A stretch of 41,089 nt of DNA from IMG/VR virus record IMGVR_UViG_2563366819_000008, one strand, 5' to 3'. Positions 3,406 to 34,893 of this stretch are shown here, in pieces. The translations under genes and the position numbers were made by a program. Under the pieces are notes generated by a model. The model searched no databases and was not told the DNA's origin. It was given only the letters and a program-made list of their open reading frames with translations. The DNA is from a virus. Lineage: Duplodnaviria > Heunggongvirae > Uroviricota > Caudoviricetes. The stretch's first letter is position 1; the number at the start of each line of letters is the position of its first letter.

Positions 3406-6400
3406 TTAACGTTCTTCCAGAGACTGAACCCGCTCTTTTATCTTATCCATTTCTCTGCGCTGCCATGCTGCCTCGATATAGAATAAGAGATCAGGTCTGA
3501 CCCCCCATCTAGATCCTGCTGGCGTTATTTCAACGCGCTCAATGATGTCTTCTATTACCATCACTGGATTATCATCCTCATCAACAATGATGCTCCCGTC
3601 ATTATCAGTCAGCGGCATTTCCCTTTGGCCAGTAATGACGTCATCATATACTGCGGGATAATCGTCATAGCAAAGAAAGGCATAGCGGCATGTTGTGCTT
3701 TCTTCTTCCATGAGTCCGTGAGAAATAAGAACATCACGAAGTTGCTGCGCGATTACACCATGATGTATCCTCGCCCCTTCTTCCCCCTTTATAGCGACAG
3801 CGTTCAGCCATTTATAAGCGATATACCTGACGTCACCCCAGGCATCCAGCAATGCTTCGTCAGGAGAGACCGGCTCTGTCTTTAATGTTCCGTCACTGGT
3901 AACCACAGGATTGGAGCCAAGATAAACTGTCGAGAACCTGTTTCCCGGACCACCAAGAGCATTTACATTATCAAGATAAGGTTTAACATCTCCGTTCTCA
4001 AAAAGATGTTCGAGTGCGTTATATACCGCGCGACGTGGAGTACTGCTTCCGGAACCATGCAACGTTATCATTGCACCATCTGCTGAAGACGTTGTTTCAC
4101 CGCCGCTAACGATTAATCTCTGAGCGGTAACATCATCAGACGGTACTTTCTTCGCAATAATGGCGTAATTACCCTCAAGTTTGACTTCCGCGCGAACTTG
4201 TCCTGATGTACCTGCATGGACAGTCAGTGACTGGACGGCAACATCATCTGTGAAATCAACGGGTACAGGAACCGTCCTCACGCCTGACGTCGACATAAAA
4301 GTAGGAAGCGTTCTGTTAGGAGTGGCTCCGTAGACAAAATCCCTTGAAACAAATTCTTCCTGTTTAATTTTCACCCTGAAACAATACAAATCAGCCGGGT
4401 GACCATCGTGAACATAAGGATATTTTCTGTTGTTATCCCCTATGCTCCATGGGTTTAGAAAGTCTTCTCCACCGAAAATGTAGTACAGCCAGTTGTCTTT
4501 GATACAAACTGAACCAACACCAACCGCAGAGTTAACTATTCCGCCCTGATAAATCTGATCAGTAACATTAACCCACTCTACATTATCCAGACTCCACTCA
4601 TTGACGTTAACTCTGGTCATAAATGTTCTTGGATAATTTCCTGCATAACGGTTATCAGGCTCTCCTCCTTCCCACTCACCAAATGCGCGCTCACTGCCAA
4701 AAATAATCAGCTCATCGCCAACTTTGGCAAAAGGAAGGTTTGAGTGATGAACATTATTTGGGAAGCGAAGAGAATTCCATGATGTACCTAAATCAGAGCT
4801 TCTGTGCAATGAACTACCGGGTTGAGTACTTAATGTCCCCCTGGTCGTCAGATACAGAATGCCATCATAATATTTTACACATGGCTCAGATGCATTCGCC
4901 TCATATTCTGCAGGTATGCGTCTGCGAACAAAGCTACCAGGAGAACCGAAAGCATCAGAGAAATAGAGTATCCCAAGCTCGCGTGGACCAATATCACCAT
5001 TATGGTAGCCAACAGCAAAACTGTTATCGCTAATCGTCGCAAAACTGTGAATCTCAGTAACAGGAGTGCTTCCGTCAACAAAAGAAGGAATAGTTCCAAG
5101 ACTGGTTTTTCTCCATGGTGACGAGTGAAATGATGTACCAAAACTCCAGTATCTACCCTCGTTATTCTGATCCACATCCTGGGTATTTTGCGTCGTAACT
5201 GTAAAAGTATTTTTATCAATAACAGTAGTCACCGTCATATTCCCGGTAACACCTGTAACACCAGAGTTTGAGAAGTTGACAAAATCACCAGCAAATAATC
5301 CGTGATCAGTAATGCGAATATAAGCGACTTGCTGATTTGCTGCTTTCGTTATACCACCATAAACGCGAAGGCTGCGACTCATTGGGCGATCCCACAACTC
5401 TGCAACCTGCAGTTTATTTCCGCTCACGGTCCGCGTCTCAATTACAGCAAAAAGGCGATTTCTGACAACCCCCATACTCATGCAGTGATAGTTAACTGTG
5501 GGATAGTTTTCATGTAAATCTGTAAGCCATTCCGGCGTTGTCCAGGTCTTCCCGTCATCTCCTGAGCGAACCCATGCAACATGGAGGTTATTTACACCAT
5601 GGCGGTCTCCAGCCATAAAAGGCGCATAGATGACATTGTCATATACAAACGTTTTATCCTGCGTCCAGGCGTTGTACCACGGTGTATCTGTAATTTTAAA
5701 TAACTCTCCCTGGATAAAATCTTCAGAAGCATAAAAAAGAGGCTGGCCCGGTATTCTCTCAAATAAAAAACGAGCATTTTTAAATCGACTGACATCCGGA
5801 AGAGTTGATACTTTAAAAGTAAGCCCTAATCCGTCAATTTTATAACCTGGAGATGAGGCTTCAAGGCACGCGCTTATTGCAGTGGAGTCGTCATTTATAC
5901 CATCACCAACAGCTCCAAAATCTTTGGGGCTAATAGCATCACGCATTTTATCCTGGAACGTTCGGTACACAGCCCCAGAACCATACTGAATAAACCAACC
6001 AAAACCACCAACAACCCCGGCAATTGCAGCATCAACATAATTACGCATTGAGCGATTATTTACAGCGTCCTGCTCAAATGATGGATCTGCAAGGTTAGAA
6101 ATTTTGTTTTGCTTTGCATCGTAATATTTTGCAAGCAGAGAGGGCTTCATCAATGCACGTCTGAACCACCCAAAACATTGCTGGATCAGCATCGTCAGGT
6201 AGTCAAAGGCATCTTCATGCACTTCGGGGAAAAATTTTCCCTGATTGCGAAGGTCTGTCTCCTGCACTACATCAAGCACACGATCTATCGTAATTCGCCA
6301 TCCAGTAGCAAGCGGAGACGGAAGAACCACAGAACCGCCACTATAAGTGCCCGCCCCAGTTACCGTATAACCGGTATCCAGGACCAATTCTGTTACGTTC

Positions 6401-6525
6401 CCGTTCAGGTCAGACACCTGAACAACCAGGTCTGATTTTCTGAAAATTCGAAAAGTATACGGAAACGATGTCGTAACGCCGTTACCGGTGTATTCGTTGT
6501 GGTCAACTTCGGTTGAGACCGTCAT
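3406..6525 (-). CDS. Tailspike protein (1039 aa) with beta-helix glycosidase-like body and C-terminal intramolecular-chaperone domain
   Basis: N-terminal particle-binding type domain; DFGAVGDGINDDSTAI motif typical of pectate-lyase-fold tailspikes; C-terminal region resembling self-cleaving chaperone domains of endosialidase-type fibres. Confidence 0.8.
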   Translation of the reverse strand: MTVSTEVDHNEYTGNGVTTSFPYTFRIFRKSDLVVQVSDLNGNVTELVLDTGYTVTGAGTYSGGSVVLPSPLATGWRITIDRVLDVVQETDLRNQGKFFPEVHEDAFDYLTMLIQQCFGWFRRALMKPSLLAKYYDAKQNKISNLADPSFEQDAVNNRSMRNYVDAAIAGVVGGFGWFIQYGSGAVYRTFQDKMRDAISPKDFGAVGDGINDDSTAISACLEASSPGYKIDGLGLTFKVSTLPDVSRFKNARFLFERIPGQPLFYASEDFIQGELFKITDTPWYNAWTQDKTFVYDNVIYAPFMAGDRHGVNNLHVAWVRSGDDGKTWTTPEWLTDLHENYPTVNYHCMSMGVVRNRLFAVIETRTVSGNKLQVAELWDRPMSRSLRVYGGITKAANQQVAYIRITDHGLFAGDFVNFSNSGVTGVTGNMTVTTVIDKNTFTVTTQNTQDVDQNNEGRYWSFGTSFHSSPWRKTSLGTIPSFVDGSTPVTEIHSFATISDNSFAVGYHNGDIGPRELGILYFSDAFGSPGSFVRRRIPAEYEANASEPCVKYYDGILYLTTRGTLSTQPGSSLHRSSDLGTSWNSLRFPNNVHHSNLPFAKVGDELIIFGSERAFGEWEGGEPDNRYAGNYPRTFMTRVNVNEWSLDNVEWVNVTDQIYQGGIVNSAVGVGSVCIKDNWLYYIFGGEDFLNPWSIGDNNRKYPYVHDGHPADLYCFRVKIKQEEFVSRDFVYGATPNRTLPTFMSTSGVRTVPVPVDFTDDVAVQSLTVHAGTSGQVRAEVKLEGNYAIIAKKVPSDDVTAQRLIVSGGETTSSADGAMITLHGSGSSTPRRAVYNALEHLFENGDVKPYLDNVNALGGPGNRFSTVYLGSNPVVTSDGTLKTEPVSPDEALLDAWGDVRYIAYKWLNAVAIKGEEGARIHHGVIAQQLRDVLISHGLMEEESTTCRYAFLCYDDYPAVYDDVITGQREMPLTDNDGSIIVDEDDNPVMVIEDIIERVEITPAGSRWGVRPDLLFYIEAAWQRREMDKIKERVQSLEER

Positions 6526-6628
6526 GTTAAATCTCCAGATAGTCGCAGCACCCGTTGCGCCGCATATCTGGTTATTCTATTACCTGAAAAACCACATATG
6601 GATAAAAAGACTATAAATACCAATAGAT

Positions 6629-6645
6629 ATTACCTTTCGGGTAAT
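6629..6645. promoter_or_regulatory. Operator-like palindrome ATTACC-TTTCG-GGTAAT
   Basis: Perfect 6-bp inverted repeat with 5-bp spacer in the divergent region between tailspike and 6721 gene; same motif recurs 10 or more times. Confidence 0.6.
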
Positions 6646-6682
6646 TTGCAAAACGTGCTGGATAGCAAACAAATTATTTGTT

Positions 6683-6700
6683 ACTGTATAAACATACAGT
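6683..6700. promoter_or_regulatory. LexA (SOS) box TACTGTATAAACATACAGT
   Basis: CTGT-N8-ACAG with AT-rich centre, about 20 bp upstream of RBS ggagaag and ATG at 6721. Confidence 0.7.
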
Positions 6701-6720
6701 TATTGCATGGAGAAGATAAG

Positions 6721-6978
6721 ATGCAGCAGTATCACTATCCACTGGAAGACGGATTTACCGAAAGGATTCACACGCCGGGAGGCGTCAGGTCACTGGTGGA
6801 GGGATCGCACTTGATGAAATTACTCCGGGATCTCGATAAGGATGGATTTAATGTCGATGGCCCACTTGCCGAACTGACTGCACTGATTAACTACGTCACC
6901 AGCTCACAGATGTCTATGCAGGATCTGCAAACACATCTCGACTATTGTGCCGAACAATTACGAAAACAAACCAGATAA
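6721..6978 (+). CDS. Small SOS-controlled protein, paralogue of the C-terminal domain of the downstream antirepressor
   Basis: 85 aa; about 45 percent identical to the C-terminus of the 7296..7952 product (shared LAELT...DLQTH/DIQTH block); LexA box immediately upstream. Confidence 0.5.
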   Translation: MQQYHYPLEDGFTERIHTPGGVRSLVEGSHLMKLLRDLDKDGFNVDGPLAELTALINYVTSSQMSMQDLQTHLDYCAEQLRKQTR

Positions 6979-7008: not shown

Positions 7009-7025
7009 TTTACCTTTGCGGTAAA
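7009..7025. promoter_or_regulatory. Operator-like palindrome TTTACC-TTTGC-GGTAAA
   Basis: Same TTACC-N5-GGTAA motif. Confidence 0.55.
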
Positions 7026-7295: not shown

Positions 7296-7952
7296 ATGAA
7301 CGCTCAACTCATCCCCGTATTCAACGGCACTATATCTAACGAAACAGCCCTACTTTGTAATGCCCGCGATCTGCACGCTTTTTTAGGTGTTAAAAAGGTG
7401 TTTGCAGCATGGATTACAAATCGCATATCAGAATACGAATTCATTGAAAATCAAGACTATATTTTGCTTTCCAATTTGGGAAAGCAAACATCTGGTAGAG
7501 GCGGCCACAACCGCAAAGAGTACCACCTCACCCTTGATACAGCCAAAGAGCTGGCGATGGTCGAGCGTAACGAAAAAGGTCGTCAGGTACGACGCTACTT
7601 CATTGAATGCGAGAAACGTTTAAGACAACAAGAAACAAAAGTGGAGAAGGTCTTGTCAGGCTTCATGCCCGCCATTATGGAGGCGATCAAGCTGGAAGAC
7701 AAAAAAGAATACAGTGCCCCGCTGAAGCCCGGCTACCGCAGCCTGATTCATTCGCCGTCTGGTGTTCTCGGCCTGACGGAGAACTCACTGCTGATGAATC
7801 TGCTGAACCAGTTACAGGAAGACGGGCACGACGTATCGGGCGCGGCGGCGGAGCTGACCACCATGTTCTGCTACATCGTCGGTGTGAGCAAATGCCTGCG
7901 TGATATCCAGACGCACGCGGAGTACATCAACGACAAGGCAGGGTTCTTCTGA
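7296..7952 (+). CDS. Antirepressor (AntA-like N-terminal domain)
   Basis: N-terminal LIPVFNG...[10 protein letters not shown]...[16 protein letters not shown] resembles AntA/Rha-type antirepressor domains; lies in an immI-like position next to tailspike. Confidence 0.6.
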
Positions 7953-8023
7953 CGGGCGGTGGCACAGGGATGTGCCTTTAAATAATTCTGTACAGATTGC
8001 AGACTGTGGGTGAATAGCGTACT

Positions 8024-8040
8024 ATTACCTTAAAGGTAAA
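8024..8040. promoter_or_regulatory. Operator-like palindrome ATTACC-TTAAA-GGTAAA abutting an RBS
   Basis: Motif followed immediately by ggaggcgcgat ATG (8052). Confidence 0.55.
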
Positions 8041-8051
8041 GGAGGCGCGAT

Positions 8052-8219
8052 ATGACAGCGTTGAAAAATCGTACTCAGCACAATGAACAAGCCAAGCAAT
8101 GCTGGGATGTCATTGGAAAAGTTATGCTTGGCCGCGCAAGCAAAGAGCGCGACAAGGATATGGTTTACCAGACAGGAACATCTTTCAGCGACTTCAAGGC
8201 GGCATTTCGCTCCAAATAG
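8052..8219 (+). CDS. Hypothetical small protein (55 aa)
   Basis: ATG with strong RBS aaaggagg; below the ORF-track size cutoff, translated by hand. Confidence 0.35.
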   Translation: MTALKNRTQHNEQAKQCWDVIGKVMLGRASKERDKDMVYQTGTSFSDFKAAFRSK

Positions 8220-8239
8220 AAGCACATCAGGAGTTTTCC

Positions 8240-8680
8240 TTGAAGTTTAACATTAGAATATCTAATAGTTTTCTACATGGGGAAAGCAACACCCCTTTCG
8301 CTGTAGACGGACCTTTCCTTACTGATGATGAAATAAAAATCATACAAAGTTTTTTAGAGGATGTTGCCAATGGAAGGGCGCTTGTTGGAAAAAACAAGCC
8401 CTCGTGGGTTGATGATAACCATGATAAAATTCCCGGCTCAGACAATTATGAGCAAGAGAATTATTGGCATTATCATTGTGGGCCAACATGGTATCCAAAC
8501 ACATTTAAGAATTATACCATTAACTTAAATTTCAACCCTGGCGGAAGGCATTCTAATGAATGCATTCATTATGCAAAAAATGATAATGAAATTGTCATTG
8601 TTGGATTTTCAAGAGAACACATACCTTTCCTTTCATCAGATGGAAACAACAATCCGCTTTTTAATGATGAAGAAGAATAG
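8240..8680 (+). CDS. Hypothetical protein, AT-rich, probable TTG start, no internal Met
   Basis: In-frame TTG at 8240 with RBS caggag 6 nt upstream; upstream part of the 8099 ORF overlaps the 55-aa gene and looks non-coding; terminator follows. Confidence 0.4.
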   Translation: MKFNIRISNSFLHGESNTPFAVDGPFLTDDEIKIIQSFLEDVANGRALVGKNKPSWVDDNHDKIPGSDNYEQENYWHYHCGPTWYPNTFKNYTINLNFNPGGRHSNECIHYAKNDNEIVIVGFSREHIPFLSSDGNNNPLFNDEEE

Positions 8681-8700
8681 CCCGCGCTGCGGGCTTTTTT
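8680..8700 (+). terminator. Intrinsic terminator (GCCCGC/GCGGGC hairpin plus T6)
   Basis: agcccgcgctgcgggctttttt right after the 8680 stop. Confidence 0.65.
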
Positions 8701-8772
8701 GTGGACGAAACAAAAGTCAGTGCTACACTCATTGACGCCACATTGAGGTGGCTTATAGATGGAAATTTCACA

Positions 8773-8934
8773 ATGAAAAAAGCATTTGCTGCACTGTTCG
8801 TTTTGTTGTCTCTGGTAGCTTCAACTCAGGCCTTTGCCGGTCGTTGTCAGCACGACAGCGATACTGCCGCTGACGGCTCCCGCTGCGGTGGGCGTTCTGC
8901 GGATTCCCGCCCGGGTGGCGGTGGCATTCGTTAA
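8773..8934 (+). CDS. Small secreted peptide (53 aa, about 31-aa mature part with 2 Cys)
   Basis: Start at internal MKKAFAALFVLLSLVASTQAFA signal peptide; Gly/Arg-rich C-terminus. Confidence 0.35.
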   Translation: MKKAFAALFVLLSLVASTQAFAGRCQHDSDTAADGSRCGGRSADSRPGGGGIR

Positions 8935-8957: not shown

Positions 8958-8969
8958 GTGACATGTCAC
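8958..8969. repeat. 12-bp perfect palindrome GTGACATGTCAC (copy 1 of 3)
   Basis: Contains the TGA stop of the 8966..9346 lipoprotein gene; adjacent to terminator hairpin. Confidence 0.8.
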
Positions 8970-9346
8970 GCAACGCAATTATTACCGCGCCATGTAACAT
9001 TTTTAATAATCTTATCAGCACCAAACTCAACGTAAACAGAGCAACTGAAATGGAGTGTATAACCGCCATCAGTTGTTGCGTATGTGTTTGAATATATAGT
9101 ATTACCAATTAGATTAGACGTAGTATTATACGTTGTGGTTTGTGGTACGTTATAACTACCAGAGCTTGAGTAAACATACACTCTGTTTCCATCTGGAGAT
9201 GTAAGCTCTCCCTGAGGATACCCCCACTGCTGAACCATTGCGTCTATACTCTGCCCGCGCCACGTAAGCATATTTCTTTCAAACTGTGCAGCTGACTGGC
9301 ATCCAACGAGAAGCATAAATCCAAAAATCAAAAATACTTTTCTCAT
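8966..9346 (-). CDS. Lipoprotein of unknown function (cargo gene; superinfection-exclusion candidate)
   Basis: Start at MRKVFLIFGFMLLVGC with lipobox; RBS agggg; Thr/Ser/Asn/Tyr-rich mature domain. Confidence 0.55.
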   Translation of the reverse strand: MRKVFLIFGFMLLVGCQSAAQFERNMLTWRGQSIDAMVQQWGYPQGELTSPDGNRVYVYSSSGSYNVPQTTTYNTTSNLIGNTIYSNTYATTDGGYTLHFSCSVYVEFGADKIIKNVTWRGNNCVA

Positions 9347-9431
9347 AATTACCCCTATCATGGAAAAACAGCACCAATCCACAAATTAACTAGTTATTTT
9401 ATTATTCTTCCGAACAATACAATTCCGAATA

Positions 9432-33923: not shown

Positions 33924-34154
33924 TCATGAGTAGAAGAAGTATGCCAGTTCTGCTTTTGAGCGCAGCCATTGTCTTGTTTTACAGGCTTTAAAAAGCCCAT
34001 TCATCAATACCTTACCTGGCATTTTGCGCTTACCTGTTAAGTGAGTCTGGATATAGTGACTCGTCGTTCCGGCTTCCTGTGCGAAGGCTTCACGCTCATC
34101 CGGAGTAAGTGCAAGCCAGTGCTTTTTGAAATCGAAATGTCCGTTATCGCTCAT
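33924..34154 (-). CDS. Cro-like HTH regulator
   Basis: Small HTH protein divergent from the repressor gene, first gene of the rightward early operon. Confidence 0.5.
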   Translation of the reverse strand: MSDNGHFDFKKHWLALTPDEREAFAQEAGTTSHYIQTHLTGKRKMPGKVLMNGLFKACKTRQWLRSKAELAYFFYS

Positions 34155-34308: not shown

Positions 34309-34893
34309 ATGAAAAGTATCCAGGACGTCCGCAGGCAAAATCTCAACGACTTGATCGACCGTGAATTCAATGGTGTTCAGACGCGGATGGCAGAAAAACT
34401 TGGAACTCAGGCAAATCTGGTAAACCGCTGGGCTCTTGGCAAGAAGGTTATCGGCGACCAGGTTGCACGAAAAATTGAAGCTGCCGCCAATAAACCCCGT
34501 AACTGGCTTGATATCGATCGCTCGCTTTCTCAGGAAGGTTTTCAGCCTGTCGGCCCAAGCGACATTGGCCAGCTGGCGGCTCACAACCTGGAACGCTGGA
34601 TGAGCGAAAGCCGCGACCTTTCAACACAGGGAAAACTTCACCGCGCATCCGGCGTAGCCCAGGTGACAATCAGCCGCCTGTTAAACAATGAGGTCAGCGT
34701 TTCCATTTCCACCCTGGAGAATGTTGCATCCGCATTCGGGCGTCACGGCTATGAATTACTGATTCACCCGCACGACCCTGCGACCATCAACTATGATCGC
34801 TCGCGCTACGCATTGTTACCCGAAACCGAGAAAGCAAAGATCGAAAGTTACATTGAATTTGTCATCAACCAGAACGAAAAAAACAAACAATAA
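34309..34893 (+). CDS. Repressor-position protein with two tandem HTH domains and no LexA-like autopeptidase domain
   Basis: Two HTH_XRE-like segments (QTRMAEKLGTQANLVNRW and HRASGVAQVTISRLL); divergent from cro; own terminator. Confidence 0.55.
   Translation: MKSIQDVRRQNLNDLIDREFNGVQTRMAEKLGTQANLVNRWALGKKVIGDQVARKIEAAANKPRNWLDIDRSLSQEGFQPVGPSDIGQLAAHNLERWMSESRDLSTQGKLHRASGVAQVTISRLLNNEVSVSISTLENVASAFGRHGYELLIHPHDPATINYDRSRYALLPETEKAKIESYIEFVINQNEKNKQ

Follow-up and report, generated by a model that had tools for sequence, protein, structure and literature searches.

A probable toxin-antitoxin-like cassette with a predicted RelE/ParE-type fold in the accessory region of an Escherichia coli Uetakevirus prophage

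The DNA of the tailed virus recorded in IMG/VR as IMGVR_UViG_2563366819_000008 (Caudoviricetes), a stretch of 41,089 nucleotides (nt) to which we refer as the window, carries two small adjacent genes at 8052-8219 and 8240-8680, the first encoding a protein of 55 amino acids (aa) and the second one of 146 aa. We propose that they constitute a toxin-antitoxin (TA)-like accessory ("moron") cassette, in which the 146-aa protein would be a divergent RelE/ParE endoribonuclease nearest to YafO that is neutralised by its 55-aa partner, and we put the probability of this reading at roughly 60%. The kind of system, a type II-like TA pair with a prophage toxin of the RelE/ParE fold, is well known; neither the toxin family nor the partner domain has been named or characterised in the databases and publications searched (literature searches with the protein accessions and the PHROG identifier found nothing), and the 146-aa protein is probably a new family within this known kind. 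The region from 7900 to 8800 has 99.9% identity with Escherichia phage phiv142-3 (MN187550), a Uetakevirus of the epsilon15/phiV10 group, and 97.5% with phage HEMP4. The two-gene cassette is part of the accessory region of a Uetakevirus prophage of E. coli. Its elements are the following.

8044-8656, plus strand: exchangeable cassette, the sequence that is absent from phage TL-2011b (blastn homology stops at 8043 and restarts at 8657)
8040-8045, plus strand: AGGAGG, the Shine-Dalgarno sequence for the partner, whose ATG at 8052 follows after 6 nt
8052-8219, plus strand: partner gene, putative antitoxin of 55 aa with an isoelectric point (pI) of 9.8, a member of phrog_8607 (E 4e-39) that consists almost wholly of a conserved domain of ~45 aa
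8229-8233, plus strand: Shine-Dalgarno sequence AGGAG of the putative toxin gene, with a 6-nt spacer to the TTG at 8240 and purine-rich equivalents kept in relatives
8240-8680, plus strand: putative toxin gene with a TTG start, encoding an acidic protein of 146 aa (pI 4.9) of phrog_5954 with a predicted RelE/ParE-type fold

The 146-aa gene is real, starts at the TTG, and this start is conserved. Its frame extends without a stop from 8099 as far as the TAG at 8678-8680; it holds a single ATG, that at 8099, which lies 141 nt 5' of the TTG inside the 55-aa gene in a different frame. An earlier note, made from the sequence alone, had pointed out this distant ATG and the methionine-free interior of the protein, both of which are present, and had proposed a probable TTG start with a good ribosome-binding site at 8240. 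That proposal is borne out by several observations: AGGAG stands 6 nt away, the same codon serves as start in 22 of 60 distinct homologue genes (21 TTG and 1 GTG; from 105 loci), 18 of these 22 being enterobacterial with identities down to ~55%, and the start in these homologues is preceded by a purine-rich Shine-Dalgarno-like stretch. The Prokaryotic Genome Annotation Pipeline (PGAP) of NCBI/RefSeq calls the identical 441-nt coding sequence, WP_000671198.1, a hypothetical protein. Most of the loci with a TTG or GTG start have an in-frame stop 0 to 17 codons upstream, so that an upstream ATG is unusable there, and the ATG at 8099 was ruled out as a start because relatives carry in-frame stops between it and the TTG. 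Remoter family members have an ATG at the aligned start position. The product, with a net charge of about -11, contains 20 asparagines, no methionine after the start and, at residues 76-87, the motif WHYHCGPTWYPN. Its methionine-free interior is incidental, as a comparison within the family shows: 52 of the 72 members have an internal methionine, and in a 99%-identical cluster one stands in place of Arg103 of the window protein.

One alternative has to be dealt with at this stage, namely that the gene is non-functional, a chance open reading frame (ORF) or a decaying remnant. It could draw on the missing annotation in the GenBank record of phiv142-3 and on interrupted copies in a few relatives (four loci which we number L016, L071, L074 and L027), and it is effectively refuted by conservation. 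The protein matches phrog_5954 from end to end (1-142 of 143, E 7e-74), its homologues fall into 34 clusters at 90% identity, and an exhaustive profile search with a limit of E<=1e-3 retrieved 122 clusters (50% identity), of which 74 have E below 1e-10; full-length homologues occur in these 122 representative clusters. Compared with relatives ~75% identical at the protein level, the nonsynonymous divergence (dN) is 0.14-0.16 with synonymous sites (dS) saturated, and dN/dS is far below 1 in both cassette genes. All 77 copies found in E. coli are intact, the fold is predicted with confidence, PGAP calls the gene and transcripts of the region have been detected. As to the interrupted copies, they concern 4 of the 105 loci and two distinct sequences (L016, L071 and L074 at ~3955-4423, L027 at ~1568-2099), in which the homologue is split by an internal stop or a frameshift next to an intact partner gene; these are probably pseudogenes. 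The earlier note had named a degraded pseudogene fragment in relatives as what would refute it, and these four loci are the extent of such decay.

The two genes, separated here by 20 nt, form a conserved two-gene module. In all 105 loci a same-strand ORF ends at most 35 nt before the toxin start or overlaps it, most gaps measuring 0-31 nt and the upstream ORFs encoding 50-211 aa. An iterative profile seeded by the 55-aa protein gathers 42 of the 51 distinct upstream proteins, and when the 45-position partner profile was used to search the 18,914 ORFs of all loci (E<=10), its only matches were ORFs directly 5' of a toxin homologue, in 94 of the 105 loci. For the other 11 the partner aligns by eye, through a hydrophobic run, [S/G/P]-R, about 12 residues and S-x-[D/E]-[D/E]-hydrophobic. 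The profile match lies at the C-terminal end of the long partners, and this ~45-residue C-terminal domain is the natural candidate for the part that would bind the toxin. PGAP calls the partner too, as a 168-nt coding sequence (WP_000125783.1, hypothetical protein), and neither the protein nor its domain has a match in Pfam, NCBIfam, PADLOC or PDB. As in type II TA modules, the two small genes are adjacent, co-oriented and inherited together.

The module is found in very different genetic surroundings. A full-length cassette with at least 97.9% identity is present in 77 of 5,426 complete E. coli genomes (~1.4%), always on the chromosome. A Serratia Uetakevirus-like prophage has a distant pair in the same slot, Klebsiella lambdoid prophages carry the pair in the nin region, P2-like Haemophilus prophages between the tape-measure and baseplate gpV genes, and a Vibrio filamentous phage also carries it; in Kingella it lies in the NADH dehydrogenase operon, with nuoK and nuoL on either side, and in Aeromonas salmonicida beside AbiTii and NYN-domain genes (the Kingella, Haemophilus and Aeromonas pairs are at L026 3366-4519, L019 3438-4435 and L025 3543-4188, respectively). 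Such transfer as a unit among unrelated elements is what TA modules typically show. Within the Uetakevirus backbone, the borders of homology with TL-2011b at 8043 and 8657 indicate that the promoter region with its palindrome and the terminator belong to the phage backbone and that exchange concerns just the gene pair and its ribosome-binding sites. The earlier note had suggested a foreign origin from composition and low GC content, and its suggestion holds: the insert at 8044-8656 is a low-GC one in a variable slot of the phage backbone, the GC content being 35.6% in the toxin gene, 47.0% in the upstream gene and 48.8% in the window as a whole. The same slot contains a YafO-type pair in TL-2011b, a 108-aa protein with a DUF2335 membrane protein in EC.W1-9 and other ORFs in Phi05_2388, while in phiV10 it holds nothing. 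The slot, which lies between the anti-repressor gene and the gene of a 53-aa membrane protein and has its equivalents in L002, L108, L109 and L110, is a hot spot of cassette exchange, with promoter/operator and terminator in common.

What kind of protein the module encodes was approached through its structure. The 146-aa protein is predicted to adopt a RelE/ParE-type (BECR) fold, an assignment which is well supported, though not by every method. The AlphaFold2 model, built with 26 family sequences, has a predicted local distance difference test (pLDDT) value of 92.5 and a predicted template modelling (pTM) score of 0.87, so that the structure prediction which the earlier note had recommended gives a confident result. 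It comprises strands at residues 4-7, 75-79, 108-113 and 117-124, with a short one at 52-54, and helices at 9-13, 29-43 and 68-73. Like proteins of the BECR fold, which are defined here as compact alpha/beta proteins with an antiparallel sheet packed on N-terminal helices and the order strand 1, helices, then three strands, the model shows all of these features. In a structure comparison the first 15 ranks were all taken by toxins of the RelE/ParE superfamily, with ~80 residues aligned each: archaeal RelE (score 7.9), a Helicobacter pylori toxin (4ls4; 7.8), Thermus RelE (7.5), YafQ (7.4), YoeB (6.9), HigB (6.0-6.9) and ParE (5.9). Six more TA toxins, the insecticidal toxin Txp40 and the CRISPR-associated protein Cami1 follow below rank 15. 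One may also imagine a RelE/ParE-superfamily toxin with a target other than RNA, which would poison DNA gyrase in a ParE-like manner or act on another protein; we regard this as improbable.

The conserved residues tell more about the possible activity. Across 83 family sequences with identities down to ~25%, H77, H79 and H127 are invariant and C80 is variable. On the model, H77 and H79 lie on the strand 75-79, H110 on the strand 108-113 and H127 just after the last strand, and we propose that H77, H79 and H127 together with the GKNK loop may form the active site. In YafQ and HigB, histidines are likewise located on or beside strands of the sheet. The His/Cys/Trp cluster that the earlier note had singled out is not a general metal-cluster signature: only the three histidines are invariant family-wide, and C80 is not. 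Some remote relatives from AT-rich sources (P0086, P0109, P0118, P0124 and P0141; 205-251 aa) have an N-terminal Cys-rich, zinc-ribbon-like segment or a C-terminal extension of ~100 residues, and are multidomain versions of the toxin fold; no fusion to the partner domain was found among the extended family members examined.

The YafO-type pair that TL-2011b carries in the same slot led to a comparison of the 146-aa protein with YafO, a family listed among the 13 Pfam families of BECR-fold RelE/ParE toxins, with the antitoxin gene preceding the toxin gene and mRNA degradation as activity (PMC11980606). Aligning the 83-sequence family alignment with 115 YafO sequences by hhalign gave a score of 24.9 and a P of 0.0021, with a probability of only 13.5%; with 16 YafO sequences the P was 0.0085. 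None of 300 column-shuffled controls reached 24.9 (mean 12.2, standard deviation 2.4, maximum 22.7), and a reversed-template control scored 15.1. Five motif blocks follow one another in the same order: LTxxE..F, GKNK aligned with GRD, WHYH with AHIH, TS..IHY with TSD.HLVY and IVGFS..H with LIAIL.P.AH. The extended alignment pairs H77, H79 and H127 with H60, H62 and H109 of YafO, and under the hhalign alignment the secondary-structure elements of a YafO model come in the same order as those of the 146-aa model. We read the 146-aa protein as a distant YafO-like branch of the superfamily, outside PF13957. The remote homology search suggested in the earlier note gave a weak hhalign signal to YafO and no match in Pfam, NCBIfam or PDB sequences.

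Compared with YafO itself (the mRNA interferase of the E. coli K-12 YafN-YafO pair, PF13957), the system shares the antitoxin-then-toxin order, a similar size class of the toxin (132 aa for YafO) and the motif order of an H-x-H strand followed by a C-terminal histidine; with a family median pI of 6.7 for YafO and 4.9 here, the proteins are near-neutral and acidic, respectively, and neither is basic. They differ in that identity is 11-12% in the hhalign alignment and the Pfam YafO model has no match here, the 146-aa protein has ~12 residues more after strand 1 and a longer loop from the WHYH strand to the IHY strand, the C-terminal helix of YafO is missing, and the partner is not a YafN (Phd/YefM-type), having no Pfam match; the resemblance between the C-terminal LNDMTDDDF of YafN and SFDDF of the partner is non-significant. 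The ribosome-dependent mRNA endonucleases RelE, YafQ, YoeB and HigB also come from small two-gene operons with a short partner, but the 146-aa protein is ~55 residues longer and acidic where these are basic, and there is no match at the sequence level. The closest system by location is that of TL-2011b, gp45-gp44 (a small protein and a YafO-family toxin), in the identical slot with the same promoter/operator and terminator. Its toxin gp44 is above the Pfam YafO threshold (26.3 bits for a cut-off of 25), and pairwise and profile-to-sequence similarity to the 146-aa protein is undetectable (BLASTP with gp44, E 1.5, not significant); HMMER comparisons of the partner with gp45 and with YafN were not significant either, and the gp45 and gp44 genes overlap while those of the window are 20 nt apart. 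Finally, both window proteins are full-length members of phrog_5954 and phrog_8607, PHROG families without functional annotation. The function had been left open in the earlier note; the families are indeed unannotated, and a specific TA-like hypothesis, built on the RelE/ParE-type fold and the constant upstream partner, now takes the place of that open question.

Part of this gene has already been the object of a knockout, under another name.

8370-8528 (6498-6656 of the phiv142-3 record), plus strand: 'orf10' of phiv142-3, an ORF of 159 nt that lies within the toxin gene in a different frame and is judged spurious

The GenBank record MN187550 annotates Orf10 and omits the 146-aa gene. A real overlapping gene in the orf10 frame was considered and rejected, because relatives ~75% identical have stop codons in it and the 146-aa frame is conserved to 40% identity. 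The primer arms of the published knockout (PMC7724020) map to 8310-8369 and 8529-8588, so what the 146-aa protein loses by the deletion is roughly codons 45-96, with the GKNKPSW and WHYHCG motifs among them; the partner gene is left untouched. The mutant was reported to grow normally in lysogeny broth (LB), to survive at ~60% in 50% serum, to express kps genes ~2-fold less and to reach reduced loads in the blood and heart of chicken, with restoration by a plasmid whose insert is undescribed (PMC7724020). Normal growth in LB after loss of the toxin core with the partner kept is as expected for the loss of a toxin. These phenotypes should be attributed to, or at least re-tested against, the 146-aa gene.

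The same data bring in another explanation, in which a protein of RelE-like fold would cause no growth arrest and act as a selective RNA-binding or RNA-processing modulator of host genes (e.g., those for the capsule), with the small protein as its cofactor or chaperone. We consider it unlikely. It would account for the lowered serum survival, kps transcripts and chicken colonisation, with complementation reported, after removal of codons 45-96, and for an acidic protein unlike most ribosome-binding RelE toxins. The knockout was aimed at a different, non-conserved frame, though, with an undefined complementing insert, and its effects are small and may be indirect, through loss of the toxin or altered prophage induction. 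Moreover, strict pairing with a small partner across unrelated mobile elements is the signature of a toxin and its antidote rather than of a host-specific regulator.

Returning to a YafO-like toxin neutralised by its partner, a number of results weigh against it. The knockout phenotype (serum resistance, kps) is unlike that of a classical toxin. At the sequence level, the 146-aa protein has no Pfam match at E<=1 and no NCBIfam or PADLOC match, none of its 44 distant relatives scanned with Pfam hits the YafO_toxin or a RelE/ParE model at E<=0.01, and neither window protein matches the defence models of PADLOC-DB; phrog_5954 was the single match in direct family searches, and PDB sequence searches with the single sequence and with a profile gave no match. 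The likeness to YafO meets the same kind of difficulty, with the low hhalign probability already given, HMMER profile-to-sequence scores of ~0-1 bit against YafO and TL-2011b gp44, and a YafO AlphaFold model of low confidence (pLDDT 52) which shows the order of elements only. Foldseek placed the same toxin families on top, but all with E > 0.3, which is not significant, and found no match for the model in BFVD. The partner has no DNA-binding domain recognisable with Pfam, NCBIfam or PDB, so that the usual autoregulation of type II TA systems is not evident. The polarity of the pair, an acidic toxin (pI 4.9) with a basic partner (pI 9.8), is the opposite of that in most RelE-type pairs.

The signals around the two genes suggest how they may be expressed.

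7997-8025, plus strand: promoter-like element of the phage backbone, TTGCAG (7997-8002), a 17-nt spacer and TACTAT (8020-8025)
8025-8039, no strand assigned: operator palindrome TTACCTTAAAGGTAA (TTACCTT-A-AAGGTAA), a perfect 7+7 inverted repeat just 5' of the partner Shine-Dalgarno sequence
6630, 7010, 8025, 25642, 28788, 28806, 31853, 31915, 33854, 34191, 34239, 34951 and 35013: sites of the motif TTACC-N5-GGTAA
8679-8701, plus strand: intrinsic terminator AGCCCGC-GCT-GCGGGCT with a T run, overlapping the stop codon; the backbone stretch from 8657 is shared with TL-2011b

The promoter-like element agrees with the consensus at 7 of 12 positions, which is below what the automatic scan lists. 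The palindrome is one copy of a phage-wide motif: TTACC-N5-GGTAA occurs in the window at 13 sites with at most one mismatch (10 exact) for 0.67 expected, and none of 100 shuffles reached 13. Two of these sites fall in the interval that separates the cro-like gene (33924-34154, minus strand) from the divergent repressor gene (34309-34893), two more come just 3' of the latter, in front of the leftward early genes, and others are near replication genes; in the accessory region, they are at 6630, at 7010 ahead of the anti-repressor gene ant, and at 8025. At 7010, 8025, 25642 and 35013 the motif comes directly after a -10-like hexamer, which a -35-like hexamer precedes by 15-17 nt. It also precedes the cassette in relatives and in TL-2011b, and Uetakevirus-like relatives (L008, L049 and L052) have it 3-4 times per 8-kb locus, while other phage types show a different palindrome at the same place before the cassette. 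From this distribution, the set probably represents the operators of the Uetakevirus immunity repressor; in the related-phage literature we found no definition of that operator set. An RNA element was considered and discarded: as RNA the palindrome forms a hairpin of ordinary stability (z = -1.1), and the only Rfam candidate, a Trp_leader that covers the terminator, stays below the threshold (21.5 bits, where 41 are required). The terminator stem (8679-8695) is 7 bp long, 6 of its pairs being G-C, and TTTTTT comes after it. The earlier note had given the gene a terminator of its own and an operator-controlled small gene in front; hairpin, T run and palindrome are there as described, but terminator and promoter/operator alike are elements of the phage backbone which unrelated cassettes in TL-2011b also use, and the palindrome is a phage-wide motif and not the cassette's own.

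Since the promoter lies on the backbone with a copy of the phage operator, the immunity repressor, rather than the antitoxin, likely regulates the cassette, which would then be transcribed from a repressor-controlled phage promoter. The repressor (34309-34893) has two helix-turn-helix regions, one YdaS/Cro-like (residues 21-61) and one HTH_3 (106-147); no LexA-type peptidase domain was found in it, which suggests induction through an anti-repressor and not by self-cleavage. In phage ZX5, whose repressor is reported to be identical, repressor overexpression shuts down lytic genes (PMC9782041). In chicken serum, transcripts of the 'orf10' region rise 2^4.12-fold, together with those of the early genes orf40 (2^3.68) and orf41 (2^4.56) (PMC7724020), a co-rise that fits control of the cassette by a phage promoter. 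Early expression of this kind could also serve an anti-defence or counter-TA factor, an inactive RelE-like decoy that would soak up host antitoxins or defence sensors, as the phage operator at the cassette promoter, the induction of the region alongside early genes and the acidity which the protein has in common with many mimic proteins would allow. We hold this to be very unlikely: three invariant histidines and a conserved GKNK loop favour catalysis over mimicry, the pair is found outside phages too (Kingella, nuoK/nuoL), and the family, PADLOC and BFVD searches found no similarity to known anti-defence proteins. The anti-defence role suggested in the earlier note has nothing that points to it; its other suggestion, abortive infection, would, like exclusion, be compatible with the TA-like reading.

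In the TA-like mechanism that we propose, the phage promoter and operator would drive a bicistronic mRNA ending at the backbone terminator. The partner would be made from the strong AGGAGG/ATG site and the toxin from AGGAG/TTG at a lower rate, the conserved weak TTG start keeping toxin output below that of the antitoxin, and the ~45-aa domain of the partner would bind and block the toxin. Should the partner be degraded faster than the toxin, as labile type II antitoxins are, or be out-titrated, free toxin would appear and might cleave mRNA by means of H77, H79 and H127, so that translation stops. We infer the toxicity, the ribonuclease chemistry, neutralisation by binding, the protein that binds the operator and the biological role, with RelE, YafQ and YafO as the analogues for the steps beyond partner binding. 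The role may be exclusion or abortive infection, host shut-off in the lytic cycle or stress modulation. More tentatively, one may go further and suppose an undescribed TA family, in which a short antitoxin free of any DNA-binding domain is combined with transcription under the phage repressor, so that the ribonuclease toxin would be switched on with the early lytic genes. If this possibility were true, the cassette would be a phage-timed device for host mRNA shut-off or for induction-coupled suicide or exclusion, and not an autoregulated addiction module, and the 'orf10' serum-resistance phenotype of avian pathogenic E. coli would be re-assigned to the 146-aa toxin.

The proposed reading provides a testable function for phrog_5954 and phrog_8607 (WP_000671198.1 and WP_000125783.1), which are hypothetical in every database, and outlines the host range of the family: phages of Enterobacterales, Pasteurellaceae, Vibrio and Neisseriaceae. 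The RelE/ParE superfamily would gain a divergent branch, and an antitoxin domain so far unclassified would come with it. Added interest comes from the apparent control by a phage repressor, from the cassette slot and from the mis-annotated, virulence-associated 'orf10'. The Uetakevirus 'plug-in' slot, with its promoter, operator, cassette and terminator, can be used for studying the exchange of accessory modules in prophages. The literature is also corrected on one point: 'orf10', which was reported to make avian pathogenic E. coli more serum-resistant and more virulent, lies out of frame within this gene, and its phenotype needs re-examination.

The cassette is surrounded by the following genes.

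3406-6525, minus strand: tailspike gene, at one flank of the accessory region
7296-7952: ant, an AntA/Bro-type anti-repressor gene, upstream flank of the cassette
8773-8934: gene of a 53-aa membrane protein (phrog_14503, 'membrane associated protein'), signal-peptide-like, downstream flank of the cassette

Another accessory gene downstream of the cassette, like that at 8773-8934, is found at 8966-9382 on the minus strand and encodes a 138-aa protein with a lipoprotein-like N-terminus (LLVGC). On the upstream side, a small ORF at 6598-6978 shares homology with the anti-repressor in the C-terminal domain of the latter: phrog_450 covers residues 42-126 of the ORF and 135-216 of the anti-repressor. 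Finally, TL-2011b has a second anti-repressor gene, whose 3' part is matched by the stretch 7723-7975 of the window in inverted orientation.

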